The position numbers were made by a program, and so were the translations under genes. Below the pieces are notes generated by a model. That model did not search any database. It was not told the origin of the DNA and worked only from the letters and a program-made list of their open reading frames with translations. This document shows, piece after piece, positions 4,242 to 64,000 of a stretch of 64,000 bases of DNA. The stretch comes from Escherichia phage vB_EcoM_Lh1B: the sequence record OK428535.1; one strand, given 5' to 3'. How positions within the stretch are numbered: the first letter of the stretch is position 1; each line of letters starts with the position of its first letter.

Positions 4242-4429
4242 TGGGTGTTTTAGTTAATTACGATGGTAAAAACGGAATNGTGCTTCGCGGCGTGGNAGAN
4301 AACTTATATGTAGNGGTGAATCCANAAACCNCAGAACGAACNTTTATNGTGGGGCCNAAAAGCGCTTTACCNAAGCCGGANTGGAAAGAAGAGNTGGNGA
4401 AGTTCCGTGGGGAANTNGGGAACAATTAG
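4241..4429 (+). CDS. hypothetical protein (62 aa; N-rich)
   Basis: ATG overlaps upstream stop; many ambiguous bases. Confidence 0.3.
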   Translation: MGVLVNYDGKNGXVLRGVXXNLYVXVNPXTXERXFXVGXKSALXKPXWKEEXXKFRGEXGNN

Positions 4430-10590: not shown

Positions 10591-10621
10591 TAATCCGTAA
10601 GGATTACGTTGCCTAAGATTA

Positions 10622-10662
10622 GCTTACTCCCTTNGGGGNGNNAGNTTTTTNNTTTTTTNTNA
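10622..10662 (+). terminator. probable terminator after the capsid gene (N-containing)
   Basis: CTTACTCCCTT...GGGG...AG stem followed by long T-run; Ns obscure detail. Confidence 0.4.
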
Positions 10663-18895: not shown

Positions 18896-18906
18896 TGGGG
18901 TCTCCG

Positions 18907-21097: not shown

Positions 21098-21625
21098 ATG
21101 GGATACCGTATAGATTTATCAAAAACCCCGAAACAGATTCTGGTTGAGAGAATCAATTACGTTTTTAAGTTATCGTATAGTGAAAATAACTACGAGTTTA
21201 ACCCACGNGGGGTGTGGCCGCNAACCNAAGNAGNGNGNCGCGNTAANGGTGTGGAGTNTAAAGTTGCGGNGCGCTTTGTAAATGGGGTACACGGCACTCA
21301 AGAGTTTTACCTGACTCGTGCGGACTTAAACAAGTTACTTAAAGACGTAACGGTTGAAGTCCCGAAGGGTGCGGCAGAATGGAGCCATGAATTAGTTCCG
21401 TATATTGTCGATGAGCTGGGTCTCCAGCTTGACACCTACGATATCATGGTTGAACCGATTACCCCAGAAATGGAATCGTATGAGGCGCGTTTAATCCCGC
21501 ACCATCTATCTTTCAAAGGCACGATTGCGATTACTTTTGTTGACCCAACTCCCCGTAAGCTGGCGCAGCTGGTAACTAAACGGGCACTCGACGGGTTTCG
21601 CCCAGGAGAATTTTTAAATGGCTAA
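21098..21625 (+). CDS. hypothetical protein (175 aa)
   Basis: ORF with Ns; overlaps the next start by 8 nt. Confidence 0.5.
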   Translation: MGYRIDLSKTPKQILVERINYVFKLSYSENNYEFNPXGVWPXTXXXXRXXGVEXKVAXRFVNGVHGTQEFYLTRADLNKLLKDVTVEVPKGAAEWSHELVPYIVDELGLQLDTYDIMVEPITPEMESYEARLIPHHLSFKGTIAITFVDPTPRKLAQLVTKRALDGFRPGEFLNG

Positions 21626-43992: not shown

Positions 43993-44033
43993 AGGCTACC
44001 ACACGATCATATGTGTGGTAGCTTATTTTTTTG
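43993..44033 (+). terminator. rho-independent terminator
   Basis: GCTACCACAC...GTGTGGTAGC hairpin followed by TTATTTTTTTG. Confidence 0.65.
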
Positions 44034-44048
44034 TTTCTGGAGGCGTTA

Positions 44049-44588
44049 ATGGCAGACCGCTATCAGCCCGACCTAACACTCTCGTCGAAAGCGCTTGTCG
44101 TGGCGCTTATCAATCATGACAATAATCTGTCACTTACTGATAAAGAGATTGTGATTAGGGATATTGATGCGAACGCTTCACCAGACATCATCCCGAAGAA
44201 CACACAGGCAAGCGTGGCCAAAGCACGTAAGCCAAATGGGAAAACCGTGACAGTCTATTATGACCGGTTAAGTGCGTCTACCGTGCTAGACAGTTTTCAG
44301 CCGCTATTGGTGTCCTTAGACGGAACCGAAACGGACATTCAGCAAATTGCCAGTGTGATTAACGGTTACTGCGGTACAAACTTGTCAGCAGCAGACTTAC
44401 AGTCTGCGCCAATCGTGGTCAGCGACGATTTTACCCTGGTGAATATCACTGGCGATTCCCCAGCATGGCTTGGGACATTTATCGCAACCCTGTTTACCAA
44501 AAATGAGTACGTTCTTTCAACTGACACTGACACGGTGCTGTGTCTGGATGAGAACACTGTGCTCGTACTGACTGACGAGGAAGAGTAA
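44049..44588 (+). CDS. hypothetical protein (179 aa)
   Basis: GGAGG RBS before ATG 44049. Confidence 0.5.
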   Translation: MADRYQPDLTLSSKALVVALINHDNNLSLTDKEIVIRDIDANASPDIIPKNTQASVAKARKPNGKTVTVYYDRLSASTVLDSFQPLLVSLDGTETDIQQIASVINGYCGTNLSAADLQSAPIVVSDDFTLVNITGDSPAWLGTFIATLFTKNEYVLSTDTDTVLCLDENTVLVLTDEEE

Positions 44589-45073
44589 TGGCCAGCCCAG
44601 TTAAAAAGCAAACATTTGAGAGCTTACCATTTTATACCGATATCACCAACGTGAAAGATGGGATGTTCTTGTTTATCAAAGATGGGAAAGCGTATCAGTA
44701 CCCGCTCGAGATGTTGGGTGTCCAGAAGGTTGCTCAGGGTGTCGTTATTCGTGATGCGGCGTATGAGTTGGAAGCGGCAGCAGCCACTGATTGGTACCTA
44801 GGACTGTCGCAACCGGAAACCGATCTCACTATTAAACCTGATGGAGTATTGGGGGCATTTCGGTACACGCTCAACCTGACTATTCTTCAGGGAACGGGAG
44901 CCAACAAAATTAACTGGCCTTCCAACGTGAAGTTCCCCCATGATGCATACCCGGTGCTGTCGTACCAGAAAGGGAAATCGGACATGATTACCCTGACTAC
45001 AATCGACGGCGGTTACACCTGGAAAGGTGGCGTTAGTGGAACAGGATATACAGAATGGGTAGAAACTCCTTAA
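44588..45073 (+). CDS. hypothetical protein (161 aa)
   Basis: ATG overlaps upstream stop; operon with the large downstream gene. Confidence 0.5.
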   Translation: MASPVKKQTFESLPFYTDITNVKDGMFLFIKDGKAYQYPLEMLGVQKVAQGVVIRDAAYELEAAAATDWYLGLSQPETDLTIKPDGVLGAFRYTLNLTILQGTGANKINWPSNVKFPHDAYPVLSYQKGKSDMITLTTIDGGYTWKGGVSGTGYTEWVETP

Positions 45074-48072
45074 TCGCAGTACGGACAGGGATTAACTACG
45101 CACTGTCGCTGGCTTACGGACATCAGGACTTTGTTCGTCGAAACACCGGCTTAACTAACGACGCCCACAATGACCATTATCTGATTAACCCAGAAGGGGT
45201 GCTATCTAATAACCGGCATTTCATTGCTGACTCCATGGCAGTGTATCAACCTAATGGTGACGCCACCACAGAAGGTCAATCGTTGCTGATTATTGGCTAC
45301 TGTCACATGTACATTGCTACCAAAAACCAGATGTGGTTAGATGCGGCGATTCATGCATGGGAAGCGTACGCTACCTACTATTACGCAGGTCAGGCCATTC
45401 CCGATTCACCACAACGTTGGATTTGTAACTGGCTAGTTAACGGTAAAGAGCCAGTGCTGGCAGACTATCCGGTGCATCCGACCGAGCCAACCCACGGTGG
45501 TTATAAGTGTGTACCGGTAACGTTTACGAACGGGCGTTGCCAGATACCCCAAGGCGCACCATTCTTTGGTGAATATCTGAACAATTTCTTTTCTGCGCAT
45601 CGTGGCCATCCTACTTGGGGTGCGGTTAATGCCGACGTACAGAAAATTAAGGAATCGGAAGACGGGTTAATTGACTGGTCTAAAGTCCCTGATTACTTAA
45701 TCGTCAATCCAGAGAAACCTTACGATGTAAAAGCGTGGGTGGACTGGAACACGATGCTAAACGACCCAACCGGATATACACCAATATGGGGCGGTTCTAC
45801 CTCGAAAGGTCCGCGGTACGAACCTGACTGGTTTGTTGTGTGGACGGGTGAGAAGGTTCAAGACGGCGATGTCATCGAATCCGGTTTACCTGATGCCCAG
45901 AAAGGAACCGTACAATTAAAGGACACTAGTATTAACGGTGTGTATTTGATTAACTACGCTTCCCAGGTACCTGTAGAGCACGGCGGATATTTGTTTGACC
46001 GCAATGAGCCGTGGCACAACCGTCCGGTTCATACCCCGTTAAAAGGGTCTGTTAACCAGATGGGTAACGCGGCAGATGCGGAAGTGTGGTTTATTGATGC
46101 CTGTTATCTGCTCTGGCGTATCACAGGTGAACCGCGCTATAAAGCCGCATTAGACTCCGTGTTCTATACAGCGCACGAGTACACGTATATCGATGCGAAG
46201 GACAAGTTTTTCCGTCGTTCTAAGCTAGCCGAAACACCATTTACAGATGGTATCTCGTACGACTATAAATACCCCAGCACCGTTGAGGTCGCTTACAGTC
46301 GTGATGAAAATGGTGATATTGTGTTCCGTTCTGAGGAAGCTGTGCAGAACTTTATGGAACAGCAAGCCGTGCGTTTCAGGATAAACAGTCAATCGAAGTT
46401 ACGTGTGACATATGGCGGTGTTTGTGACAACGGTGATGCACTTGCGTGTAAAGTGATGGTGGATATTAACCCCGTCAAAGCGGATACTGAAGAAGTAAAC
46501 TGGTACGGCTGTACGCTCCCGGGATCAACATCGATGGAAGTAGAACAGCATGACATCGATTTAGGGCATCTGGCCAGAATGACCAATCCGGCCAACGGCG
46601 AAGATTACATCATTGCCGATGCGCGAGCATGTTCGGACTACGGTGGGTGTACGTGGCAGGAGAAGTTTGAGAACAACATTTACGATGGTCGTTCAGGGAC
46701 AATCGTAGAAGCGTTATTCCCGAACGACGATGCGGGTTTCATTATCGGTTTCTGGTTAACCGATGCCGGTGTTGCACCCCCACAGTCAATTGTCTATCGT
46801 GCCGATGCTGATTTCAACTTCCGTTTCGAAGATACCGACAAGTGGCGTTGGTGGTGGATGTTGCCCGCGACTAACGGGGAATGGAAACAGGTTATTATTC
46901 GCCCTGAAGACGCAACACTCTCGGGCTATCAACCTGACCACGATACCGACGTCGAACCAAAACCGGCTGCGCCAAACTATACAACTATCGATCAGGTAAC
47001 CATACTGCCCGATTCGGCTGTGGAGAATGCGCACTTTAGCTGGTATTGCGTAAACGATGTTCCGCCCCTGTTTAATGCAGACGACGGTTGGACGTTAACG
47101 TTCCGTATTGTAATTCGGGGAGGTTCTGCATTTACGGGTAAGGTGGGCGATTGTACGATAAAAGATTACCGTCTTGACTCGCTCGCGTATTGTCCAGGTA
47201 CGATACCGTTCTCGAACATTTATTCGGAAGGAACGTATCAGCTAGGTGCATGGCACGGGATGCCGTATCCCGGCTATCAGTATCCGTTTATGTACACCAT
47301 ACACACCGATGATCGCTACAAAGACTGGCTCTTAAATCAGATTCGGTTTATGCACGATTCACAAACCAACTACCAAACGCAGATAGGTGAGTTAGGTCCA
47401 GGTTGTGCGGCGTATATTTGGAACCGTTGGGATAACTACTCTTACGGCCCGGCAGATACGTGGACAACGTTCCATTGGGGCGATGGACATCCGTGGGCAG
47501 GTTATCAGCCGCGCGCGTATAACGCCGCTGCGCGTTGTTGGTACGAATTAGTTGTGCGTGGTAAAGAGGTTCCACCTGAGCTAGTAGTGTACGTTGAAAA
47601 TTGGGCTAAGTGGCTCGTAGGGTTCTTAGACCGCTTTGACAACCACACCCCGAATGAATTCCCTACGGCACCAAATAAACCGGTATGGGTAGAGAATGAT
47701 TTCACAGCACATATGTGTGCGCTCTGGATAGCAGGCAGTGCTTATGCGGCAATGGCCGGCTGTACAGTGGAAGGGTTGAGCCGTATTATGGATATGGGGA
47801 TGAAGGAGATGGGTGACAACTTCACCGTCACCGACATTCCAGGAAAAGCCATTAACGGTGCCTGGTCTCCATGGGCAAATCCCACCACGGATAACGGTCA
47901 GGCTTTTGGGTTTTATACTGGAGAAGCGATGCGTGCAATCGGGTTGTATCTCCTCTATAAAGAACACGGCGCAGGACATGATATTTATCGTGACTTGGCA
48001 ATCCCCGACCACACAACAGCCTCGCTCGATATAACGTTTACTATCCCAGACGATCCGCTCGAAACTAATTAA
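45055..48072 (+). CDS. large Trp/Tyr/Gly-rich protein (1005 aa), possible virion or tail-associated protein
   Basis: 3-kb ORF coupled to two upstream genes; terminator downstream; function not recognisable. Confidence 0.6.
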   Translation: MGRNSLIAVRTGINYALSLAYGHQDFVRRNTGLTNDAHNDHYLINPEGVLSNNRHFIADSMAVYQPNGDATTEGQSLLIIGYCHMYIATKNQMWLDAAIHAWEAYATYYYAGQAIPDSPQRWICNWLVNGKEPVLADYPVHPTEPTHGGYKCVPVTFTNGRCQIPQGAPFFGEYLNNFFSAHRGHPTWGAVNADVQKIKESEDGLIDWSKVPDYLIVNPEKPYDVKAWVDWNTMLNDPTGYTPIWGGSTSKGPRYEPDWFVVWTGEKVQDGDVIESGLPDAQKGTVQLKDTSINGVYLINYASQVPVEHGGYLFDRNEPWHNRPVHTPLKGSVNQMGNAADAEVWFIDACYLLWRITGEPRYKAALDSVFYTAHEYTYIDAKDKFFRRSKLAETPFTDGISYDYKYPSTVEVAYSRDENGDIVFRSEEAVQNFMEQQAVRFRINSQSKLRVTYGGVCDNGDALACKVMVDINPVKADTEEVNWYGCTLPGSTSMEVEQHDIDLGHLARMTNPANGEDYIIADARACSDYGGCTWQEKFENNIYDGRSGTIVEALFPNDDAGFIIGFWLTDAGVAPPQSIVYRADADFNFRFEDTDKWRWWWMLPATNGEWKQVIIRPEDATLSGYQPDHDTDVEPKPAAPNYTTIDQVTILPDSAVENAHFSWYCVNDVPPLFNADDGWTLTFRIVIRGGSAFTGKVGDCTIKDYRLDSLAYCPGTIPFSNIYSEGTYQLGAWHGMPYPGYQYPFMYTIHTDDRYKDWLLNQIRFMHDSQTNYQTQIGELGPGCAAYIWNRWDNYSYGPADTWTTFHWGDGHPWAGYQPRAYNAAARCWYELVVRGKEVPPELVVYVENWAKWLVGFLDRFDNHTPNEFPTAPNKPVWVENDFTAHMCALWIAGSAYAAMAGCTVEGLSRIMDMGMKEMGDNFTVTDIPGKAINGAWSPWANPTTDNGQAFGFYTGEAMRAIGLYLLYKEHGAGHDIYRDLAIPDHTTASLDITFTIPDDPLETN

Positions 48073-52738: not shown

Positions 52739-53185
52739 ATGTACATTCTGAATAACGAACTTACTAAGTACGCTAGCAAAAACCCGANTATGATTTNTTT
52801 NCTAATCGTGATGGCGGCCAACAAACAAGACCCTAGCGAATTCACTACTGAGGTCTTCGAAGAGATTATCGCTAACGCCAAAGAAGCCACGTTCCAGACC
52901 ACAGNGCCTACTCGCGACGAGTTCCCCCTAGGTGAAGCCGGCGATGTAATGTTTAACGACATGGTTGCTTCGTACTACATCAATAGACGTGGTATGGAAA
53001 TCGAATACGATGAACTTCCTACTAGCAGCTTTGCTGAAATGATTCGTGATTATCGTCGTCAAGTTGTCTCTGACGATATCGTAAAGAAATACATGGCACA
53101 AATCAGCCCATTCAGTCTTGAATTCGAAAACCGCGCGGTTGCCTTAGCAACACATCGCCTGCGTTTAGAAAAAGAAGTACACTAA
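52739..53185 (+). CDS. hypothetical protein (148 aa)
   Basis: Driven by conserved leader and AAGGAG RBS. Confidence 0.55.
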   Translation: MYILNNELTKYASKNPXMIXXLIVMAANKQDPSEFTTEVFEEIIANAKEATFQTTXPTRDEFPLGEAGDVMFNDMVASYYINRRGMEIEYDELPTSSFAEMIRDYRRQVVSDDIVKKYMAQISPFSLEFENRAVALATHRLRLEKEVH

Positions 53186-53246
53186 TAATAACCCGGCGGG
53201 CAAAGTCCCGCCAATCAACCTGCAATCTACAAAAAAGGAATATCCC

Positions 53247-53465
53247 ATGCGCAACCTCTTCTCCAAATCTGAAATCAAACCTGTTGTTGAAACCGCAGCC
53301 AAACGTAAACCTGACANGNNTGANCTGNNGCTGAAAANGTNTGNAGCAGAAGCCAAAGCGTTNCNGNAAACAATGAAAGACGGNGATAAAATGATTGACA
53401 ATGTTGAAGTAACCTACGGTGTTAAAGACCGCCCAAAGAATAACGGCCTCGTGTGGGTCTGTTAA
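53247..53465 (+). CDS. hypothetical protein (72 aa; N-rich)
   Basis: AAGGAA RBS; many Ns. Confidence 0.35.
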   Translation: MRNLFSKSEIKPVVETAAKRKPDXXXLXLKXXXAEAKAXXXTMKDXDKMIDNVEVTYGVKDRPKNNGLVWVC

Positions 53466-53643
53466 TCGACGATTGAGGATAAAGTCATGAAGAACAAAAA
53501 GCTTCGGCTCCCCTTCTTTTTTTGTTTCCTTTTCTTTTTTGTTTGCTCTTGTTCGGATTCTGGTACGCACTACGCTTTTAATATGCTGGCAGGGGGTCTA
53601 AAAATCTTACGACCTCAATAATCCCTTAACTCGAGTTAACGCG

Positions 53644-54441
53644 ATGTCTTTTACTTCAAAACAGAATCTGCTAAAACTCATCAACGAAGAGAATAAGATA
53701 AGCCCACCGCTTACCTTTGACGATGTTGATATCGGACTGCCGGAGGTTGTGTCAGTAGACGGTCGTGATTCGGAGGTAGTCCTTACCTCGAAGATGCGCG
53801 GTGATGAAGGTACGCAAGTGATTGTGGACTACCATCGTCGTCCATTAGAGGACTACCTTAAAGGCGATGTTGCCTTTGGAGACGAGGACGTGCAAACCAC
53901 GCACGACTTACTCGCGGCGATTAACGAGCGTTTTAATCTGTCTATCTTACCTGAGGATATCGAAGATAACCCCATTGATGGACAGACGCACACAGTCGTT
54001 GCTGTTGAAACTTCCCACGAGTGGCGAAGTCAAGCGGTCATCGAGCTGAAACCTGCTACACCTCTGGCAGAAGTAGTAACCAATACAGAGTTGAGCGGTC
54101 TTCTGTACCCGGATCACCAGGACATCCAGTTGGGTCAGGCGTATATCTATTCGCGTGACATCGATTGTAGCCACATCTCTCGTTTCCTGAGCCTCTTAGC
54201 GGTCGGTATCGAGGTAGATGACACGGCGTTGGCAATCGAACTCAACAAATGTGTTCCTGAGATTTGGGTAGCTGAAGATACCCCATCCCCGTATAACCTG
54301 CGTGGTGCCACTGTCGTATTCGACGGCGTACCTGCAGACTTGCCGGGAGCAAATACGGCGTTCGCGAAAGTCGTGTCAGTGCAACTGACCGATAAATGTA
54401 CGAACTTCCAGGGCAGCCTCAACCTACACTTTAACAACTAG
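53644..54441 (+). CDS. tandem-array paralogue P1 (265 aa), putative tail-fibre/receptor-binding-like family
   Basis: Shares N-terminal module and C-terminal L-x-L-H-F/Y-N motif with P2-P8; no obvious RBS. Confidence 0.6.
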   Translation: MSFTSKQNLLKLINEENKISPPLTFDDVDIGLPEVVSVDGRDSEVVLTSKMRGDEGTQVIVDYHRRPLEDYLKGDVAFGDEDVQTTHDLLAAINERFNLSILPEDIEDNPIDGQTHTVVAVETSHEWRSQAVIELKPATPLAEVVTNTELSGLLYPDHQDIQLGQAYIYSRDIDCSHISRFLSLLAVGIEVDDTALAIELNKCVPEIWVAEDTPSPYNLRGATVVFDGVPADLPGANTAFAKVVSVQLTDKCTNFQGSLNLHFNN

Positions 54442-54451
54442 GAGGGTATAG

Positions 54452-55294
54452 ATGTCTATTTACGATAAGCCCTCGAAAGAGATGTTGTTAGATGCTATTA
54501 ACCGACAGAACGGATTAACGGCCAATCCACTCACATGGGAGCAGGTTGCAACTGGCTTCCCTGAGTCTGTCCAAACGCCTGGCGCTGACCGGAATACGCG
54601 TGTGCTCTTATACGGGTTGAACGGCAAGGGCTACAAAGGCAACGTTACGCTCGAATACGACCGTATCGAAATGGAAATTCTGTTCAGGAACGTAATACCG
54701 GTAGTCGTTGCCGACCCGGTAAATAAACTCTCTGAGTTGTTGCCGTTTCTGAATGCGAAATACGGCTTGTCTTTAGTTGCCGACGATATCGTTGACCAGT
54801 CAGTAAAAGATTTGGGAGAAAGCTGGTTAATCGATGTGACTATTAAGCCTGGTTGCTTGGCCTGGCAAGGTGGTTTCCGTTTACGCTTTGCGAAGTTCTT
54901 CCCGAACTTGGCGGATGTGGTGACGGATGTTGACCTCAGCGCAATTATCGCGCCGTTCGTGGTTGCTAGTAAACCACAGGCTGAGTATGTGGCGTATGGT
55001 TACGATTGGACTGAACTGCAAAAACAGTTCACTACCGATTGGGCTTACAACCGCGCAATCACCGCGGCGGATGTTGAATTGCTTAACGAAGTGGTGCCAT
55101 TAAAGTTTGCATATGTGACGGGGGCGACTGCGCAACCTGAACAAATTGCGCTTCAAGGTGCACGATATATGGGGATAACTTCAGTCACACCGAACGATAG
55201 TTACAACCCCGATTATCAGCGTGTGGCGATTATCAAGCTAGCTGCGGACAGCAACTACGCCGGTAATCTCATCCTTCACTATCTCCCGATATAA
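54452..55294 (+). CDS. tandem-array paralogue P2 (280 aa)
   Basis: N-terminal LLDAINRQN...ADRNT...G..G..YDR module; GGAGG RBS. Confidence 0.7.
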   Translation: MSIYDKPSKEMLLDAINRQNGLTANPLTWEQVATGFPESVQTPGADRNTRVLLYGLNGKGYKGNVTLEYDRIEMEILFRNVIPVVVADPVNKLSELLPFLNAKYGLSLVADDIVDQSVKDLGESWLIDVTIKPGCLAWQGGFRLRFAKFFPNLADVVTDVDLSAIIAPFVVASKPQAEYVAYGYDWTELQKQFTTDWAYNRAITAADVELLNEVVPLKFAYVTGATAQPEQIALQGARYMGITSVTPNDSYNPDYQRVAIIKLAADSNYAGNLILHYLPI

Positions 55295-55304
55295 GGATTT
55301 TGAC

Positions 55305-56150
55305 ATGCCACTTTTAGCCACTGCTGAAAAGATTATTATCGCGGAGGTTAACGTCGAAAACAATCTCGATTTAAAAGTCGAAGATGTGGTTTTCGGTGTC
55401 CCTGCGATTCCGACGTCTGACGAAGACCTGGCAAAAGCCAATGGTCATAACGCGATGGTGCGCATTCAGGCATTGGCCACCGCTAATGCTATCGGTGCCA
55501 CTACCGTGTATTACGATCGTGTTGACTTCGCAGACATGTTTACCGACCCAGACGGGATTCAACCTTTACGTGTTCCTGCACGTCTCGATGCTGTTTACCA
55601 GATGCATGACGTGGTCGGGTTAATTAACCAGTATTACGGTCTCAGTCTTAAACCTGCAGATGTGGTGAATACCGAAATCGACAGGAAGACATGGCGTGTG
55701 GATCTGATTGCCACGCCCACTTCTTTAGGTTGGATAGGGCAACAACAGGTACAGCTGTTACCAGGCGATGCGTTGCTTCCTGCAAACTTCGAACCCTTAA
55801 CAGTAACACCTTACGAGTATCCGTATTTTAACATCAAGGTCGGTCAAGGTGCAGTTTATTCGTATCCCTGGCGCTTTGATAATTTCGCGGAGGAATTTCA
55901 ACGACTAGGTGCTGCGATAACCGCAGAACGTCTGGCACAGATTCTCAAAACGGTCACCGGTGATAACTGGACAACGTACCGTAACCCAATCGACTTTAAC
56001 CTTCGTGAAGCCGTCGTCGTCTATAACGGGCGTAACAAAGCGGAATTACCAACCAACCCAGCAGTCGACAACGTGCTGATTGTGGAGCTGTCGTTGTACT
56101 GTCTGAATTTTGGCGGGCGTTTGTATTTGCACTACAACGACCCTGATTAA
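55305..56150 (+). CDS. tandem-array paralogue P3 (281 aa)
   Basis: Divergent family member (YYDRVDF, C-terminal LHYNDPD); AAGGA RBS. Confidence 0.65.
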   Translation: MPLLATAEKIIIAEVNVENNLDLKVEDVVFGVPAIPTSDEDLAKANGHNAMVRIQALATANAIGATTVYYDRVDFADMFTDPDGIQPLRVPARLDAVYQMHDVVGLINQYYGLSLKPADVVNTEIDRKTWRVDLIATPTSLGWIGQQQVQLLPGDALLPANFEPLTVTPYEYPYFNIKVGQGAVYSYPWRFDNFAEEFQRLGAAITAERLAQILKTVTGDNWTTYRNPIDFNLREAVVVYNGRNKAELPTNPAVDNVLIVELSLYCLNFGGRLYLHYNDPD

Positions 56151-56171
56151 TCCTGAGTAAAGGAAGTAAGA

Positions 56172-57083
56172 ATGAAACCTTTAAACAAAACGTCCGATCA
56201 GCTGGTTCTGGATTTTATTAATGAGAAAAACCCAGACGCAGAACTGGAACTTTCTAAAATAACGCTCGGCACACCGACCCCTATTATCGATGAAGGTGCC
56301 GATCGCAATACCAGCATGACCCTGACTGCGAAAAAGAACTCCGGGTACATCGGTACTCAGGACGTGACTTATAATCGCCTGGAAGGCGGTGCGCTGTTCC
56401 GNAACGTAACGGCATACCTCGACGTTAAACTGCCGAAAACCACCACAGACCTGCTGACGACCCTGAACACCCAATACGGATTGAAGCTGACCGAAGACGA
56501 TATCGTTCCGGCGGCTATTCCGGAAAATACCAACCCGCCGCTGACTAACCCGAACGATCCGGACCCAGCACCGGTTGACCATGTCATTACCTTCAAAGAA
56601 GACTGCTACGCTTATCTGGGCAGCATCCCGGTTAAAATCGGTGCTAAGCCTCAGGTTGGTGAACGTCTGAGTCTGGTGGTAACACAAACCAAGCTCGACG
56701 GCCTGGTTTACCCAGATGGTCCAAGCGAAGCGAAGGGTCAGGGCTACATCTACTCTTACGGTGTAGACTGCACAGCAATCGCAGCATTCCTGAAAGTACA
56801 GGCGAAAGGTGTTATCGCTGGCGACTCTGCATTCCCGGTTGAGCTGAATAAAGTTGTGCCGGAACTGTGGGTTGCATCTGATGAGCCTGCGGATTATAAC
56901 CTGAAAGGTGCTAACGTGTTGTACGTTGGTTCTACTACTGACGATGGCACTGCTTCAGGCGACGATCCTAAGAAACCGGTTGAAGGTGCAAACACTGCTT
57001 ACAACCAGGTTCTGCTGCTGCAGCTGGATGACACTCTGTGCACCAACTTCCAGGGCGTCATGTACCTGCACTTTAATGCCTAA
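56172..57083 (+). CDS. tandem-array paralogue P4 (303 aa), codon-optimised
   Basis: INEKNP...ADRNT...YNRLEGGALF and C-terminal YLHFNA; strong optimal-codon bias; terminator downstream. Confidence 0.7.
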   Translation: MKPLNKTSDQLVLDFINEKNPDAELELSKITLGTPTPIIDEGADRNTSMTLTAKKNSGYIGTQDVTYNRLEGGALFXNVTAYLDVKLPKTTTDLLTTLNTQYGLKLTEDDIVPAAIPENTNPPLTNPNDPDPAPVDHVITFKEDCYAYLGSIPVKIGAKPQVGERLSLVVTQTKLDGLVYPDGPSEAKGQGYIYSYGVDCTAIAAFLKVQAKGVIAGDSAFPVELNKVVPELWVASDEPADYNLKGANVLYVGSTTDDGTASGDDPKKPVEGANTAYNQVLLLQLDDTLCTNFQGVMYLHFNA

Positions 57084-57095
57084 TTAGGCCTCGCT

Positions 57096-57137
57096 GGGAG
57101 GAGGAAATCCTCCTCCTGGCTACTCCTTTCTTTTTTG
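57096..57137 (+). terminator. rho-independent terminator inside the paralogue array
   Basis: GGAGGAGG-AAAT-CCTCCTCC followed by T-rich run. Confidence 0.6.
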
Positions 57138-57152
57138 GCCGAGGAGGCTATT

Positions 57153-57992
57153 ATGGCTTTATATAGTCTGTCTCAGCGACAATATCTGTACGATGCGATT
57201 AATGCCGAAAACCCGGATGCTGTTCTACCGATGGGTTTAGACAATGCTATCATCGGTACGCCGAAAGCAATCACACCGACAGCAAGCGGTGCCAATACTG
57301 AGATTATCATTCGTGGTCGTCAAGGTCGTGGCTATATCGGTCCTCAGACGTTCCGTTATAAGCGCTTGTCGCTGAACGACTTATTTAAGAACATGACACC
57401 TCAGGTAACTGCACCGAATGCCTACGGTTGGTTGAACGTGGAGTCGAAACGTACTGCGTTTGCGCAGAACCTGAACGGTCGTTATGGATTAAACCTGGTT
57501 GCAGACGATATCCCAGAACAATACGTTTATCTGAACGTAAACAACACGATGCGTATTAACGCTAGCTGTATCCAATACACTGGCAGCATCACCTTTATGT
57601 CTATCCGGGGTAAGAATAGTCTCGAAGACCTCGTGGTAAACGACATCTTGTCGGCTTTGAACCACCCTGCAGCAGCAAGCACTGGTAAGAAATACATGGG
57701 CTTCTTGACGTACGGGGAAGACTTTACTGATGAAGTGCAGGTTATGGCCTCGTTTAAGAACGGGCGAATGGACGTAGGAAGTAACTTTGATTTGGGTTAC
57801 ACGTCCAATCTGATGGCCACATTGGTCGCACGTGGGGTACCGTCGTTTGATCCGACGAACTGCACAATTACCCGCTACAAAACGAGTGAGTTGGCGACCG
57901 CCAATAAAGCGTACGATAACGTATTGCTGATTACCGGCATTCAGAACGACCCGAAAGTAATCGGCGAGTGTATGTTGCACTACAACAACTAG
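57153..57992 (+). CDS. tandem-array paralogue P5 (279 aa)
   Basis: GAGGAGG RBS before ATG 57153; C-terminal MLHYNN. Confidence 0.7.
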   Translation: MALYSLSQRQYLYDAINAENPDAVLPMGLDNAIIGTPKAITPTASGANTEIIIRGRQGRGYIGPQTFRYKRLSLNDLFKNMTPQVTAPNAYGWLNVESKRTAFAQNLNGRYGLNLVADDIPEQYVYLNVNNTMRINASCIQYTGSITFMSIRGKNSLEDLVVNDILSALNHPAAASTGKKYMGFLTYGEDFTDEVQVMASFKNGRMDVGSNFDLGYTSNLMATLVARGVPSFDPTNCTITRYKTSELATANKAYDNVLLITGIQNDPKVIGECMLHYNN

Positions 57993-58002
57993 GAATTAGC
58001 GA

Positions 58003-58890
58003 ATGGCTATTTATCAACCTTCTAAAGACGTCCTGTTGGCAGCAGTGAACGCACAGAACTCGCTTGCTGTTAAGATGACTGACATCATCTGGTCCTCGCC
58101 AAAGGACATCCGTGGTACGGAGAAGGAAACGCTGACTAACCGTAACACGCAAATTAAAATTACGGCAGATGGGGTAACGGGCTCTACCTGGTCGGGTAAG
58201 AAAAATGTCTTCTACAACCGCATGAAGGTCGAAGACTTGTTAGTGTTGATTGGTGACACGTTGGCGATCGGCCCATCCAACGAAACCTTGTATGCGGCCA
58301 TTCCTGGACTGAACCAACGTTACGGTTTTGTTCTGGAAGAAGCTGACCTGCAGGACGCAGATATCGAATGGAACGGTGATAAGACCGAAGGTACTGTGCG
58401 TGTTGTTGCACATCCAGAGTCTATCGGTTGGGTTGGACAGGCGACATTTAAAGTCGTGAAAGGCGATGAGTCGTTAGTCTCTGCAGTCACCACTAACGTC
58501 CTGACCGGTCTGAAATACCCGAACGGTCAGATGGGTTCCGAAACCGTTACTGCGGTCATTGCAGAGGTTTATTCCTACCCGTACAACTTCACTAAGTACC
58601 GAGATGCTCTGCTGGCATACAAGCCGGGNATTCTGTCTGGNCAGCCGTTAACGGATATGGTTAACCTGCTGAAAGATATCACGGGTACTGCATGGGTAGC
58701 GACCACTTCCGCTTCCTACGGTTTGGCGGGCGCGGAGGTTATCAGCGTTGGTCTGAATGACCCTGTTGCAATGCCGACAAACGCGAAGTACAAGTATGCG
58801 CTGGTGTTGAAACTGCCTGTTACCTGTACCACCATCGTCGGAACGTTGTATCTCCAGTTCAACGATCTGGACGATCCAAGCGAGGTATAA
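58003..58890 (+). CDS. tandem-array paralogue P6 (295 aa)
   Basis: LLAAVNAQN...NRNT...YNRMKVEDLL; C-terminal YLQFND. Confidence 0.7.
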   Translation: MAIYQPSKDVLLAAVNAQNSLAVKMTDIIWSSPKDIRGTEKETLTNRNTQIKITADGVTGSTWSGKKNVFYNRMKVEDLLVLIGDTLAIGPSNETLYAAIPGLNQRYGFVLEEADLQDADIEWNGDKTEGTVRVVAHPESIGWVGQATFKVVKGDESLVSAVTTNVLTGLKYPNGQMGSETVTAVIAEVYSYPYNFTKYRDALLAYKPXILSXQPLTDMVNLLKDITGTAWVATTSASYGLAGAEVISVGLNDPVAMPTNAKYKYALVLKLPVTCTTIVGTLYLQFNDLDDPSEV

Positions 58891-58893
58891 TTG

Positions 58894-59721
58894 ATGATCA
58901 ACTATGCTAAGCCGTCAAACGAGTTGGTCTTTGACCTCATTAACCGGGATAACCCAAACCTACCTATTAAAGCGTCGCCGGCAAACTGCTACGTGGAGAA
59001 AGTGACGCAGGTTCCCGTTAATGCAGCTTCCAACAACCGCAATACGTCGGCACGCTTGCGCGGTATTCAGGGTTCCGGATTTCGAGACGCAATCACCGTT
59101 TACTACGACCGTGTGAACTTAGCGCGGTTATTGCCGTGGGGTCCTTCTGTCCAGGCGCAGTTCGTCACGTTTGACGCGCCCAACCTCCACTCAGCCTTTT
59201 CGGTGCTCTTGGATACTTACGGAGTAAACTTCTCCGCAATCGATATCCAAAACTACTCACTGTTTGGTGCCAATACCCCAAATTACACCAATACACAGAC
59301 CATTGCAGCGCTATCGACATCTCCGGCTTATATCGGTTCTGCGACGTTGCGTTATAACCGTGGTTTACCGGTACTAGACACTTCGGTGAAATCAGATGTC
59401 TTGAATGCGATTCAAGAGCCTATTTCACCGTCTCTCGGTAAGAAGTGTATTGATTTGTTGACGTACGGTATTGACTTTACCGCGTATAAAAACCTACTGA
59501 CAGTAGATGCTTCTGGCCTACCGCAGTGGGCTGGTTTGCGTAAGGTGTTGGATGACCTGGGTATTCCGAACTACGCGGGGCCACTGAACAGTAACACCGT
59601 TCAGGATGTGCCGACTTCCACCGCTCAGTTCGCTAACAAATCGTACGACCGCGTGGTTATCCAAACGGGCATCGATGAGGAAGGCGTGAAAGGCGTGGCG
59701 TACTACCACTATAACAGCTAA
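58894..59721 (+). CDS. tandem-array paralogue P7 (275 aa)
   Basis: DLINRDNP...NNRNT...YYDRVNLARLL; C-terminal YYHYNS; terminator downstream. Confidence 0.7.
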   Translation: MINYAKPSNELVFDLINRDNPNLPIKASPANCYVEKVTQVPVNAASNNRNTSARLRGIQGSGFRDAITVYYDRVNLARLLPWGPSVQAQFVTFDAPNLHSAFSVLLDTYGVNFSAIDIQNYSLFGANTPNYTNTQTIAALSTSPAYIGSATLRYNRGLPVLDTSVKSDVLNAIQEPISPSLGKKCIDLLTYGIDFTAYKNLLTVDASGLPQWAGLRKVLDDLGIPNYAGPLNSNTVQDVPTSTAQFANKSYDRVVIQTGIDEEGVKGVAYYHYNS

Positions 59722-59725
59722 GTGT

Positions 59726-59750
59726 AGGGGCTCTTCGGAGCCCCATCTTT
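59726..59750 (+). terminator. rho-independent terminator (UUCG loop)
   Basis: GGGGCTC-TTCG-GAGCCCC followed by ATCTTTTGG. Confidence 0.55.
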
Positions 59751-59768
59751 TGGCGATGCGGAGTCCCT

Positions 59769-61181
59769 ATGCTATTTTACTCGAAGGAGTCGGCACTGCT
59801 TGTATACGACCAAGTCAATCGGGATAATCCTGATTTAGTTGTTAAGCTGACGCCGGCTATCGCTGCTTTAACCAGCGGCCCAACTTCAGTTACGTTAAAC
59901 CAGCGTAACACCAAAGCTGTTTTCACCGGGTATCCAGGGACAGGTGTACAAGGTAATGTTACCGTGTACTACGACCGGATTAACCTGGCCACTTTATTTA
60001 ATTTTGTGCCGACTGTGGCTATCAAAGATACAGTCTTAACGGTACGAGACGCGCTACCTGCAATAAACGACGCATTGGGGCTTACATTAGTTGCTTCTGA
60101 TTTGCAGTCACCTGACGCAAGTTTACCTAAACCGAGCGCTTCGCCGCAGACGTTGAAATTAAATATCTCAGGTAATTGCCCTGCGTTTACAGGCAGCTTA
60201 ACGATACGTTATACCGTCCCGAGTGGTGCAATTTACCCCGATTCTGGACCTGGCCCTAAAACGTTGCTGCAAGGTAACACTATCGCGGGTTATTTCGGAA
60301 CAACCACAATTGCAGAGTTGTTTACACACTCTCAACTTCTTAATGCCACTATATCGGCCGGTGCGTTACCACCGGTACATTCTGGTGCCGAAGGTTGGTA
60401 CAAGTTCTTTTACCAGGGTAGGGTTATTTACCTCCCGATTAGTCCTGTCGCTAGCTCCATCTCCTGGAATACGTTATATACAAACGGACTCGTTTACGGA
60501 ACAGACGATAATGGTAAATACCCTGCGGCGACGCCCGTTAACCAGGGACGCATCATTAGCTTTACAGGCGCAGACAACAAAAGGTTTTACTTCCGCGTTC
60601 GTCTACCTAGTGCCGGGAAAGACCCATACGTCAGCGGCACCCCAACTGCCGCTGAGTTAGCAGGTAGTGAGTTTGAGATGTTCAACTTTCTGTATAATGG
60701 AACGTGGGACAAACCGATTAACAGTTACTGGACGCTGTTCTGTTTATTGAAAGATACACTGAACACCAACGTCGCCAATCATCGCATGGCGACGTTGTCT
60801 GGAGCCAGTTGGACAAACTTAGGAAAATCATCGAGCGCAGGCAACTACTACTGGTTCCCGGTGCTAGAGTTGGTGGATAAGTCCACAGTTACCTTGGGTT
60901 TAGAAGATATCCATGGTGCGGTAGATTACAGTCTCCAACCGNNCAGNGTGTCCGCAGAAAANNCNTTTAGNCTCANNCCNTTGGTNCTCGGTAATCCAGA
61001 TACTACCGATTTCGAACCGGTAGTTGTTACTTCAGAAAACAGTTTCGCACNGCATCCGCCTGCTTTAATGCTGCCGAAGACAGTCGACTTCCAACCCATT
61101 GCGGCTACCGCTGAAATGTATACGCCACCCGACAAGACATCGTTAACGTCACTTAACGGTGAACTGGACGGCTTTAAGTAG
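59769..61181 (+). CDS. tandem-array paralogue P8 (470 aa): N-terminal family module plus GPGPK-motif distal domain
   Basis: YYDRINLATLF module, then YPDSGPGPKTLLQGN...GYFG domain shared with P10 and P11; Ns near 3' end. Confidence 0.7.
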   Translation: MLFYSKESALLVYDQVNRDNPDLVVKLTPAIAALTSGPTSVTLNQRNTKAVFTGYPGTGVQGNVTVYYDRINLATLFNFVPTVAIKDTVLTVRDALPAINDALGLTLVASDLQSPDASLPKPSASPQTLKLNISGNCPAFTGSLTIRYTVPSGAIYPDSGPGPKTLLQGNTIAGYFGTTTIAELFTHSQLLNATISAGALPPVHSGAEGWYKFFYQGRVIYLPISPVASSISWNTLYTNGLVYGTDDNGKYPAATPVNQGRIISFTGADNKRFYFRVRLPSAGKDPYVSGTPTAAELAGSEFEMFNFLYNGTWDKPINSYWTLFCLLKDTLNTNVANHRMATLSGASWTNLGKSSSAGNYYWFPVLELVDKSTVTLGLEDIHGAVDYSLQPXXVSAEXXFXLXXLXLGNPDTTDFEPVVVTSENSFAXHPPALMLPKTVDFQPIAATAEMYTPPDKTSLTSLNGELDGFK

Positions 61182-61192
61182 AGGTATCATCC

Positions 61193-62191
61193 ATGTCTTT
61201 TACTTTGCGTTGGAAAAATCCAAACGTAATCTCTACGGTAGTAAAAATCTACCGTGACGTTAAAGATATCACACCGAGCGCTTTGCCTGAACCGATTGCA
61301 ACGCTCTCAAATGGCGAGACAGAATGGCGTGATACCACCGCCGCACCAGGCGCAACCTATTATTACCTTCTGACGGTAACCGCCAACGGTAAAACAGTGG
61401 CATCGTCTAGCCAGAAATACACCATTGAGATAAAGCGTGGGATTGGCCCAATGACTATTCTAAACGGTAACGACCGTTTAGGGTTTATGGGTGCGGTTCC
61501 TTACGACGAACAATGGCTTCCGTCGCAAATGCCACCTGCATTTTTGGCGATGTTCCCTAATCTATTAACCGATCGTGTGGCGTTGTATAAATTTACCCGA
61601 AACGGGAAAATCTATTACATGCTATCTAACACGTCGCAGTTCCCGAATACGCCTGTGGACTGGGCTTCCCTCTATCAAGCTGGTTTAGTCTATGGTACGG
61701 GCGATGCTGGTCCAGAGAACGGCCATGGAACGCTACCGGCCACTCCACAAGACGCTAAGATAGTCCACAAAGGGGATACGTACATTATGCGTCTTCCTCG
61801 CGGCCTGACGACGTCTAGCGAGCCTCCTGCGTATCCTTTCGTAGCTGACTATAATGGGAAAACCCATGATGAAATCGCTTCTCTAACCAACCCGTGTGAG
61901 TATAACGATTTACTTTACACGATGGTTAACGAGGTGCCGAAGAAACAGCGTTGGGCTAACTGGGCAACGTACAGTTATAATTATCTGGGGCAGGGTACTT
62001 TGGGAACCTCGGCAACGTATTTCGGCGGTGGTGTTCTCTGTATGGAACACGACACCACGGAAGACCGTGTGCTCCATCGTGGTATTTTTAACAATGCCGG
62101 TGGAACACCCGTATCCGCGATTCAGCGTATAAACTATTTATCACCCACCACGAAAGGGCGTTACTACCCTATCTTTGAACTGGTTGAGTAA
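61193..62191 (+). CDS. tandem-array protein P9 (332 aa) with N-terminal FN3-like domain
   Basis: LRWKNP...IYRD...TYYYLLTVTANGK fits a fibronectin-III-like pattern; C-terminal YYPIFELVE parallels P8 WFPVLELVD. Confidence 0.65.
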   Translation: MSFTLRWKNPNVISTVVKIYRDVKDITPSALPEPIATLSNGETEWRDTTAAPGATYYYLLTVTANGKTVASSSQKYTIEIKRGIGPMTILNGNDRLGFMGAVPYDEQWLPSQMPPAFLAMFPNLLTDRVALYKFTRNGKIYYMLSNTSQFPNTPVDWASLYQAGLVYGTGDAGPENGHGTLPATPQDAKIVHKGDTYIMRLPRGLTTSSEPPAYPFVADYNGKTHDEIASLTNPCEYNDLLYTMVNEVPKKQRWANWATYSYNYLGQGTLGTSATYFGGGVLCMEHDTTEDRVLHRGIFNNAGGTPVSAIQRINYLSPTTKGRYYPIFELVE

Positions 62192-62200
62192 GGGGCAGTC

Positions 62201-63124
62201 ATGACTATACGGTTAAGCTGGCCGTCTCAAGCCAGTAAAGGTCTTACCGCGATTGAAATCTATCGCAAAGAAGGCTGGAACGCAACTATAGACGTTTACA
62301 ATCCAGGCACGCCCCACGCAACTTTATCTGGCAACGCGGTAGAGTTTGTAGATAATATCGATACCCTGACGAAGAATACAACCTATCGTTACTGGGTAGC
62401 TGCTGTAAAAGACAGTGAACGACTTATCGGCAATCCGATTACGCAAGGATTCTATCCGGACACCGGGCCGGGTCCGCAAACTATTTTGCGTGGTGACTGG
62501 GCTTCAGGTTATTTCGGTACAGTACCGAATACAGAGTTCTTTAATACAGCCGAGTTAAAACTCATGTTAACTGCGCAGCAGGGAAACATGTTTATCTACG
62601 ACCCTCAGGAATGGCACAAGTTTATTTTCCGTGGGCGAATTGTGTTCTTCCCAGCGTCGATGCATTCGAAAACCAACTCGGTACAAATGGCGTATCAGTA
62701 CGGTATGATGTACGGGACCGATGATGTCGGAAGTATTGTTCCGCTGGGAGCCACGGCCACCAAACAAGATTGTAAGGTCACGAAGGATGGTCGTACGTAC
62801 CGTATCCGGTTACCTTACGCAGTCCCGTACGATGCGACTCTCTCAGGACAGGATTACAACAACGGCGAATGGCGAAACACAATGGGCCGTTTGTATCCTG
62901 TCAGTGCACAGTTCCCAGCCCTTGGTCTTGGTGCCATCGATTCAATACCGGCGCAAGGTTCAACTTCCCAGCCTAACGAAACAGGTGCTGCTGCATTAGC
63001 CCCTTTATGGAGCAACAACATTTTCGCTTATGCGTACGGTTATGCGCCTATAGGGATTAGTAACACCTCAGGTGTCGGGAACTCGACCACGATGTTCTTT
63101 GCTTTTGAATTAGTCTTACCGTAA
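62201..63124 (+). CDS. tandem-array protein P10 (307 aa): FN3-like domain plus GPGPQ-motif domain
   Basis: LSWPS...IYRKEGW...TYRYWVAAV then FYPDTGPGPQTILRGDWASGYFG. Confidence 0.65.
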   Translation: MTIRLSWPSQASKGLTAIEIYRKEGWNATIDVYNPGTPHATLSGNAVEFVDNIDTLTKNTTYRYWVAAVKDSERLIGNPITQGFYPDTGPGPQTILRGDWASGYFGTVPNTEFFNTAELKLMLTAQQGNMFIYDPQEWHKFIFRGRIVFFPASMHSKTNSVQMAYQYGMMYGTDDVGSIVPLGATATKQDCKVTKDGRTYRIRLPYAVPYDATLSGQDYNNGEWRNTMGRLYPVSAQFPALGLGAIDSIPAQGSTSQPNETGAAALAPLWSNNIFAYAYGYAPIGISNTSGVGNSTTMFFAFELVLP

Positions 63125-63137
63125 CGGAGTAAAAGCC

Positions 63138-64000
63138 ATGGGGTTGTATACAGAACCTTCAATGGAACTGCTCTGCCAACAAATTGTGCGTGACAATCCC
63201 GGTTTAGCAGGAAAAATCACCGCTGACTCCATTGGGGTCAGGGGNGTTCCTGTTGCGAAAAACGTTAACGGACGAAACACACAGATTACGTTGGTAGGAA
63301 AACCCGGTAAAGGATTTGCTGGGGAAATAACGGTATATTACGACCGGTTGAATCTGGCCAGTCTATTTAAGTCTGGCCCAAATATGGTGAGTATTCCACG
63401 TAGCGNACAAACCCATGCGGAAGNGTTACCGGCGTTCAATGAATTGAACGGGTTNAACTTAACCGCGAGTGATATCACCAGTCCAAACGTTGCATTAATG
63501 AAATACGCTACGCCGGAAACTGTAACTCTGACGGCGCACGCTAACTCCTTGTGTTATACCGGGTCATGCAAGATGACCTATGTTTACGAACCGATTGCGA
63601 TGTATCCGAAGTCGGGTCCTGGGCCAAAAGGATTAATGGCTGGTAATGAGTTATACGGATTCTTTGGGCTGGTAAGCGCGGAAGAGTTATTCACATCTGA
63701 TGAAATGGTGTATGCCCTCTATAACGGCACCACCTGGCCTAACCGCTACGCTATCAAGTGGCTCAAATTCTTTCTGAATGGGGNGGTAGTGTTTGTTCCG
63801 ACCCGTGCGNTTTGCAACGTTACCTGGGCAGACCTGTACAACAAGGGTGCAATATTTGATTCCGGAGACGCAGGACCTCGCCCGAAGTCGACTTACACAC
63901 CTGTCGATGTTGAACAGTTGAAATACATGGTAAAACGGGATGATGAAGGAACGCATTATTTCAGAATGTCTATCCCGTATTACACCGAGAACGCCGCCGC
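63138..64000 (+). CDS. tandem-array paralogue P11 (partial, runs off window end): N-terminal module plus GPGPK-motif domain
   Basis: IVRDNPGL...GRNT...YYDRLNLASLF then YPKSGPGPKGLMAGN...GFFG; no stop within window. Confidence 0.65.
   Translation, partial: MGLYTEPSMELLCQQIVRDNPGLAGKITADSIGVRXVPVAKNVNGRNTQITLVGKPGKGFAGEITVYYDRLNLASLFKSGPNMVSIPRSXQTHAEXLPAFNELNGXNLTASDITSPNVALMKYATPETVTLTAHANSLCYTGSCKMTYVYEPIAMYPKSGPGPKGLMAGNELYGFFGLVSAEELFTSDEMVYALYNGTTWPNRYAIKWLKFFLNGXVVFVPTRAXCNVTWADLYNKGAIFDSGDAGPRPKSTYTPVDVEQLKYMVKRDDEGTHYFRMSIPYYTENAA

Follow-up and report, generated by a model that had tools for sequence, protein, structure and literature searches.

Here we describe a tandem gene array in Escherichia phage vB_EcoM_Lh1B (sequence record OK428535.1), where a stretch of 64,000 nucleotides (the window, to which all positions refer) ends in eleven consecutive plus-strand open reading frames (ORFs), P1-P11, at 53644-64000. 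Over the whole array the region is 97.8% identical at the nucleotide (nt) level to the Salmonella jumbo phage SPN3US (Seoulvirus), and P1-P11 match SPN3US gp138-gp148 gene for gene (RefSeq tags ACQ60_gp128 to gp118). The identity of the array is certain: it is the SPN3US-type paralog family B, or DUF7941 cluster, already known from the literature since 2016 and represented by a Pfam entry since about 2025. Family B, which comprises gp83, gp138-154, gp160/161 and gp237 (Thomas et al. 2016; Ali et al. 2017; Viruses 15:723 (2023)), has been described in the SPN3US papers as the largest family of paralogues within any one phage genome, and was assigned to the head by proteomics of tailless mutants; of the distinct virion proteins in SPN3US-type phages, roughly one in five belongs to it. 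Its role is disputed, because the published proteomics places these proteins with the head rather than the tail, whereas structural work on phages phiKZ and Goslar points to a "fibre cloud" at the baseplate.

A first-pass annotation, made from the sequence alone, had seen eleven tandem plus-strand genes with their own ribosome-binding sites. All eleven ORFs were found in the expected places, separated by gaps of 3-69 nt, and Shine-Dalgarno-like motifs precede most of the starts. The genes are as follows.

53644-54441, plus strand: P1, 265 aa, equivalent to SPN3US gp138; full-length DUF7941 protein (N-domain, linker, C-domain), Pfam PF25613 E 7.5e-68 over model positions 5-276 of 276; 98.6% nt identity to SPN3US.
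54452-55294, plus strand: P2, 280 aa, gp139; full-length DUF7941, Pfam E 4.8e-71; the start at 54452 lines up with the N-termini of the paralogues.
55305-56150, plus strand: P3, 281 aa, gp140; full-length DUF7941, Pfam E 1.5e-79.
56172-57083, plus strand: P4, 303 aa, gp141; full-length DUF7941, Pfam E 8.1e-85.
57153-57992, plus strand: P5, 279 aa from the ATG at 57153, gp142; full-length DUF7941, Pfam E 3.2e-80; the TTG at 57135 in the ORF list lies further upstream.
58003-58890, plus strand: P6, 295 aa, gp143; full-length DUF7941, Pfam E 8.6e-81.
58894-59721, plus strand: P7, 275 aa, gp144; full-length DUF7941, Pfam E 4e-87.
59769-61181, plus strand: P8, 470 aa, gp145; DUF7941 N-domain, second shared domain and disordered tail.
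61193-62191, plus strand: P9, 332 aa, gp146; FN3-like N-terminal domain followed by the shared C-domain, without DUF7941.
62201-63124, plus strand: P10, 307 aa, gp147; FN3 domain at residues 1-80, then the shared C-domain.
63138-64000, running off the window, plus strand: P11, the first 287 residues of gp148 (498 aa); DUF7941 N-domain, then the shared C-domain.

The array had been expected to continue past the window end, and in SPN3US it does so, reaching gp154 for a total of 17 consecutive genes, gp138-gp154. BLASTP resolves three tandem triplets, P8-P9-P10, gp148-150 and gp151-153, and by the SPN3US annotation P11 is the first gene of the second. The window holds 259 N bases in 48 clusters (e.g. 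1324-1440, 4279-4417, 53317-53384 and 60942-61051), which become X residues in some translations and leave the reading of the array unaffected; these clusters look like consensus ambiguities or population polymorphism.

An all-against-all BLASTP comparison revealed significant mutual similarity among P1-P8 and the later SPN3US members gp148, gp151 and gp154, with paralogue E-values down to 1e-40. A hidden Markov model (HMM) built from the first 160 residues recovered the N-terminal module in P1-P8 and P11 at E 1e-41 to 1e-59, so that the shared module proposed for these proteins is significant, its size being about 150 aa rather than the 90 or so first suggested. The N-terminal motifs INxxN, RNT, G..G.G..G and Y-D/N-R....LF are visible in the alignment. 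Pfam DUF7941 (PF25613; 276 model positions, gathering score 27 bits) matches the same set at E ~1e-29 to 1e-87, scoring 229-293 bits over the full length of P1-P7, and 110.6 and 101.1 bits over the N-half only of P8 and P11, which match just the first 153 positions (P11, E 9.8e-29). Homology among P1-P7 runs from end to end (Pfam positions 1-276), so their more distal regions are not unrelated either, nor are the middle ones, contrary to the earlier impression that these parts had diverged; P8-P11, for their part, have a second domain in common. A C-terminal L-x-L-H/Y-Y/F-N motif had been credited to seven members, and a related motif, G-x-[LMY]-x-[LY]-[HQ]-[FY]-N, is present in 6 of P1-P7, the exception being P2, which ends in ...LHYLPI. 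At the DNA level, repeats within the array are only short remnants of conserved motifs, and since nothing longer persists the duplications must be old.

Two short family members, each consisting of the DUF7941 N-domain only and scoring above the gathering threshold, lie elsewhere in the window.

44031-44588, plus strand: 185 aa, equivalent to gp122, directly upstream of tail genes gp123 and gp124; Pfam E 2.6e-18 (66.9 bits), N-module HMM E 6.4e-17.
21098-21625, plus strand: 175 aa, equivalent to gp83; Pfam E 2.6e-12 (47.2 bits).

The N-domain HMM also re-matches, weakly, the last ~35 residues of P1, P7, P2 and P3 and of the orthologues in Cronobacter phage CR5 and Erwinia phage phiEaH2, and the C-domain HMM re-matches the N-domain, with RNT...Y-D-R lined up on N-x-A-Y...H-Y-N; an internal duplication may have given rise to the two halves of DUF7941. 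Additionally, CR5_144 (722 aa; 18202-20370 of the CR5 stretch compared) carries 2-3 tandem N-domains in one chain and looks like a covalently linked form of the head-to-tail polymer proposed below.

P9 and P10 lack DUF7941 and belong to family B only because of the C-domain that they have in common with P8. This domain, of ~225 aa, is found in P9, P10 and the C-terminal parts of P8 and P11; the P9 matches in BLASTP are P8, P10, gp149 and gp152, and the C-domain HMM scores P9 at E 1.8e-76 and P11 at E 1.1e-48. Pfam gave no match for P9, and sequence searches with the shared domain (Pfam, PDB profiles) identified only the FN3 part. In P8, the DUF7941 N-domain (residues 1-150) is followed by the second shared domain (~153-371) and a disordered segment (380-470) ending in NGELDGFK. 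The predicted model of P8 (pLDDT 75) is confident in both globular domains, with residues 380-470 disordered, and its structural matches are headed by phiKZ gp127, discussed below, followed by a long and consistent series of C-type-lectin/FGE folds. The shared C-domain of P8-P11 thus probably adopts a C-type-lectin/FGE-like fold, although this assignment, made from a predicted model, is tentative. The C-domain HMM retrieves 1,556 protein clusters at E 1e-3 or better, some of them giant multi-copy proteins with ConA-like lectin, Kelch propeller or bacterial Ig domains, a company typical of exposed adhesins.

Several further observations concern these proteins. The disordered tails of P8 (61130-61178), gp148 and gp151 all end in ...N-G-E-L-D/N-G-F, which resembles the C terminus of the gp83-like protein (21550-21622) as well as the V-T-x3-L-[SDT]-G-[LF] that closely follows the N-domain of P1, P4 and P6; this tail-end motif may be a donor peptide that docks onto another N-domain. 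The tails were also considered as diverged DUF7941 C-domains, an idea that was rejected when hmmsearch returned nothing (E >0.4), only a short ...L-D/S-G-F/L motif being held in common. In GenBank OQ383623 and MT679221 the orthologues of P9, P10 and later triplet genes are labelled "glycosyl hydrolase"; there is no hydrolase family match in Pfam or PHROGs, PDB sequence searches gave beta-galactosidase at chance level (E 0.3 and 0.92), and for P9 and P10 we reject the label, which seems unfounded. Finally, the clustered N bases and the lectin-like fold raised the question of hypervariation of the diversity-generating retroelement (DGR) type. This too was rejected: compared with SPN3US, N positions in the array stand for all four bases (T 6, A 5, G 5, C 5) and are not adenine-specific, and 53000-64000 contains no long direct repeats and no template/variable repeat pair, reverse transcriptase not having been searched for.

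The array had been read as a cassette of alternative tail-fibre or receptor-binding proteins on a common N-terminal adaptor, and so as a determinant of host range, a reading that is partly supported. The pattern of conservation is not that of a cassette. In 21 phages, which include deposits with Salmonella, E. coli and Proteus hosts, the array is present over 100% of its length at 94.7-97.9% identity. Orthologues of its genes are collinear and one-to-one; those of P7 are 96.7-100% identical among close SPN3US-type relatives from these several hosts, 82% in Erwinia phage Caitlin and 62% in CR5. For P1-P7 as a whole, one-to-one collinearity extends to phiEaH2 (58-80% identity) and CR5 (43-62%). 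Paralogues within one genome, by comparison, are only 20-37% identical. Because orthologues are far closer to each other than paralogues are, each paralogue must be ancient and individually kept, which is the pattern of non-interchangeable parts of one assembly rather than that of swappable alternatives. Evolution is faster in the triplet genes, with orthologue identities of 31-55%. Array length, which the annotation had suggested comparing across relatives, does vary: 17 genes in SPN3US, 16 in phiEaH2 (7 plus 3 triplets) and 14 in CR5 (9 full-length members, a gp154-like gene, the 722-aa protein and one triplet), while the P1-P7 part remains collinear. Nor did searches for tail-fibre, tailspike or depolymerase families recover any in Pfam or PHROGs; the only families matched were DUF7941, "virion structural protein" and others of unknown function.

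Elsewhere in the window, the tail-gene region gp122-gp124 (44031-48072), which includes a 1005-aa gp124-like tail protein at 45055-48072, is mosaic. Of 34 related records, just two cover it 100% (Salmonella phage JN03 and E. coli phage EC001); coverage in SPN3US and ~20 others is ~76%, in two pieces. As a candidate host-range cassette, gp122-gp124 is preferable to the array.

That these are virion proteins, as the first-pass annotation supposed, is borne out by published mass spectrometry of SPN3US, in which gp138-gp154 were detected in every replicate, of tailless heads as well as of the wild-type virion (Viruses 15:723). The tailless heads were those of a tail-tube amber mutant, 255(am107), after purification through two CsCl gradients, and the values given here are ratios of normalised peptide-spectrum matches (PSM) in heads to those in wild type (Viruses 15:723 Table S2). 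The ratios for gp138-gp154 are 1.06-1.67 (gp138 1.45, gp139 1.49, gp140 1.22, gp141 1.44, gp142 1.40, gp143 1.56), compared with 1.39 for the major capsid protein and 1.40 for the portal; tail proteins, such as the sheath, tube, tape measure, gp124 and gp168-171, do not exceed 0.07 (Viruses 15:723). The same data show that the members are made and incorporated together in every virion, and since all 17 co-occur they are not alternatives; their retention by tailless heads also speaks against a tail-borne location. Abundance is uneven. The P4 equivalent gp141 is the most abundant array member, at ~746 PSM per replicate, gp143 (P6) is of middle abundance (~346 PSM), and in PSM per kDa the other members lie near the 12-copy portal or below it (Viruses 15:723); by SPN3US densitometry, gp141 and gp160 each exceed 300 copies per capsid. 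Among the short members, gp83 has a ratio of 1.20, gp122 was found at a low level and in whole virions only (7 versus 0 PSM; Viruses 15:723), and gp237 has been reassigned to the tail in SPN3US (0.06).

Retention in heads would also be expected of internal proteins that are packaged along with DNA, as ejection proteins or as a mass resembling an inner body, and whose paralogues would diversify an injected payload or organise the packaged genome. This is the tentative suggestion of the SPN3US authors, and it accommodates the finding that all 17 proteins stay in tailless, DNA-filled heads at a ratio like that of the major capsid protein, the >300 copies of gp141 and gp160, the abundant internal protein seen in bubblegrams of SPN3US heads, and the phiKZ capsid structure, whose icosahedral shell lacks a DUF7941 protein. 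Family B, however, is not processed by the prohead protease as the internal proteins of family A are: the cleaved SPN3US head proteins are gp45, 47, 50, 53, 54, 75, 81 and 245 (nine in a later study, which adds gp225), with no family B member among them. The Pfam family of the internal head and ejection proteins of phiKZ-like phages (PF12699, family A) finds no match in the array proteins. The SPN3US protease-mutant paper, consulted for evidence on prohead incorporation, does not mention family B. FN3 and lectin-like domains, like the adhesin-type company of the C-domain, typically mark exposed proteins; phiKZ gp127, a homologue, has an external position on the baseplate, and Goslar gp22 makes long filaments. 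We therefore regard an internal location as rather unlikely.

Head association could also reflect capsid-bound structural accessories without a host-binding role, such as cement, vertex or hexamer-centre decoration or neck proteins, with the paralogues filling quasi-equivalent sites of the T=27 capsid. There is an unassigned protein at each of 260 hexamer centres, a number near the copy estimates for gp141 and gp160. But most members are of low copy number by the portal comparison given above, and neither lectin-like and FN3 modules nor filament formation would be expected of cement proteins, so that such a role is very improbable.

The suggestion that the common N-domain serves in assembly or anchoring gains from comparison with phiKZ and Goslar. 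The P1-P7 profile matches phiKZ gp127 (PHIKZ127, PDB 9xqd chain 0) at E 9.5e-25, with the same C-terminal motif; P4 as a single sequence gives E 0.011, and the gp127 N-domain is also recovered by structural matching of predicted models. In the phiKZ structure (PDB 9xqd) each star lobe of the outer, peripheral baseplate has one modelled copy of the gp127 N-domain, located where the gp139 band ends. By this sequence comparison, then, the P1-P7 N-domain is homologous to the domain that docks phiKZ gp127 onto a virion scaffold. The Goslar preprint (bioRxiv 10.64898/2026.04.21.720040) defines DUF7941 as a chimallivirus-specific family, with 10 members in Goslar and at least 3 in phiKZ, and reports that purified Goslar gp22 forms long filaments in vitro, as seen by negative stain, in which AlphaFold 3 predicts that the linker and C-domain dock head-to-tail on the next N-domain. 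Its authors propose a baseplate-anchored "fibre cloud" for host recognition, the anchor being placed at the baseplate because the phiKZ gp127 N-domain is modelled there.

Baseplate-anchored fibres for receptor binding and host range, the view of the first-pass annotation and of the Goslar preprint alike, would fit that placement and the gp126-gp127 dimer fitted at the same site, the virion and tail gene neighbourhood of the array (gp122-gp124 upstream and, in SPN3US, gp168-171 downstream), the tail association of the short members gp237 and gp122 in SPN3US, and the EPS (exopolysaccharide) depolymerase gene directly before the array in phiEaH2. This gene, G173_gp058 (8836-10653 of the phiEaH2 stretch compared), carries that function by annotation and lies immediately upstream of the orthologous array; its product is without the DUF7941 N-domain. 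Against a baseplate origin, none of gp138-gp154 is depleted in the tail-tube amber heads, where true baseplate and fibre proteins drop 15- to 200-fold; there are no tail-fibre, tailspike or depolymerase matches and no cassette-like mosaicism; and the Goslar preprint makes no mention of the SPN3US data. We consider it distinctly unlikely for the array proteins.

With a probability of roughly 45%, the explanation that we prefer is that P1-P11 are co-assembled subunits of a flexible hetero-filament or adhesin system with FN3 and lectin-like modules, independent of the tail and probably external. Here the N-domain would accept the linker or tail of another family member, so that the proteins polymerise head-to-tail into flexible hetero-filaments. 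The seven anciently diverged full-length paralogues would be non-interchangeable filament subunits, with P4 as the bulk subunit, and triplets of the P8-P9-P10 type would supply the FN3 and lectin-like binding modules. The filaments would be fixed to the neck or to the surface of the capsid, independently of the tail. Through them the virion would bind host surface polysaccharide reversibly and with low affinity; they would not act as tail receptor-binding proteins or host-range switches. The FN3 domains, the probable lectin-like fold, the conserved triplets and the collinear orthologues favour such an exposed, tail-independent, adhesin-type system.

A number of points weigh against it. The SPN3US authors tagged the abundant members "head ejection?", and internal proteins would stay just as well in heads purified twice on CsCl. 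In the 30 Å SPN3US capsid map, all that is seen is a small knob at the centre of each hexamer, and fibres on SPN3US heads appear in no structure or image, those of the SPN3US cryo-EM paper included. Furthermore, the only structurally placed homologue, phiKZ gp127, belongs to the baseplate and not to the head, and polymerisation is known for one Goslar protein only, in a preprint. On a speculative note, the unassigned knob at the 260 hexamer centres, so close in number to the gp141 and gp160 copies, could anchor these proteins.

A more specific form of the filament proposal is an appendage so far unrecognised: a fibre anchored at the head or neck, in which the seven DUF7941 subunits polymerise and the three triplets form heteromeric binding tips. 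We offer this tentatively, as a possibility rather than an expectation. If true, it would reconcile the SPN3US head proteomics with the filament and baseplate observations from Goslar and phiKZ, two literatures that have not addressed one another. If the family does form an exposed adhesin-type system that is independent of the tail, these chimalliviruses would carry a second, non-tail apparatus for host contact, which would bear on adsorption, on host range and on the engineering of phages that are therapeutic candidates.

Potential transcription signals lie in the two longest intergenic gaps, one after P4, the most abundant member, and one after P7.

57096-57137, plus strand: hairpin GGGAGGAGG-AAAT-CCTCCTCCT and, downstream of it, a T-rich run, in the 69-nt P4-P5 gap; read from the sequence.
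59727-59744, plus strand: GC-rich terminator-like hairpin in the 47-nt P7-P8 gap; found by pattern scan.

The first of these is a possible terminator or attenuator, and is absent from the output of the consensus terminator scan; promoter and terminator patterns in the scan were not above their counts in shuffled sequence. The hairpins may split the array into transcription or attenuation units comprising P1-P4, P5-P7 and P8 onward. Also, P10 is the array gene most divergent from SPN3US (92.6% nt identity, 68 differences, 19 non-synonymous codons), the other ten being 97.3-99.6% identical, which suggests local recombination or faster evolution.

Head-borne, non-essential-looking appendages of the Ig/FN3 type that give weak adherence include T4 Hoc, the phi29 head fibres and the head fibres of Tenacibaculum phage PTm1. 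They offer a possible functional analogy without homology, capsid attachment of DUF7941 proteins being only a proposal. Proteins of known C-type-lectin fold (Bordetella phage Mtd, the DGR-variable TvpA and TaqVP, the invasin tip and FGE/PvdO) have no sequence similarity to the array C-domain, and unlike DGR systems the array shows neither a template/variable repeat nor adenine-specific variation. phiKZ has only about three family members against the 17-gene array of SPN3US, and its gp127, at one copy per baseplate star lobe, has a tail location that the SPN3US array proteins do not match. In Goslar the domain family is the same, the abundant gp22 and gp23 parallel gp141 and gp160, and some members join the N-domain to binding-type C-terminal domains, as here. 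Its 10 members (gp22, gp23 and eight others), however, are encoded by dispersed genes rather than by one array of 17, their C-terminal domains are predicted to be carbohydrate-binding, glycoside-hydrolase or LRR (leucine-rich repeat) domains in place of FN3 and lectin-like ones, and the Goslar authors infer baseplate fibres, whereas the SPN3US data put the family proteins with the head. The closest counterpart is SPN3US family B itself, for which the published work gives no domain analysis or function: genes, order, sizes and triplet structure are the same, and the differences from the window array are at strain level only, amounting to 210 substitutions in 10,357 nt, concentrated in P10.

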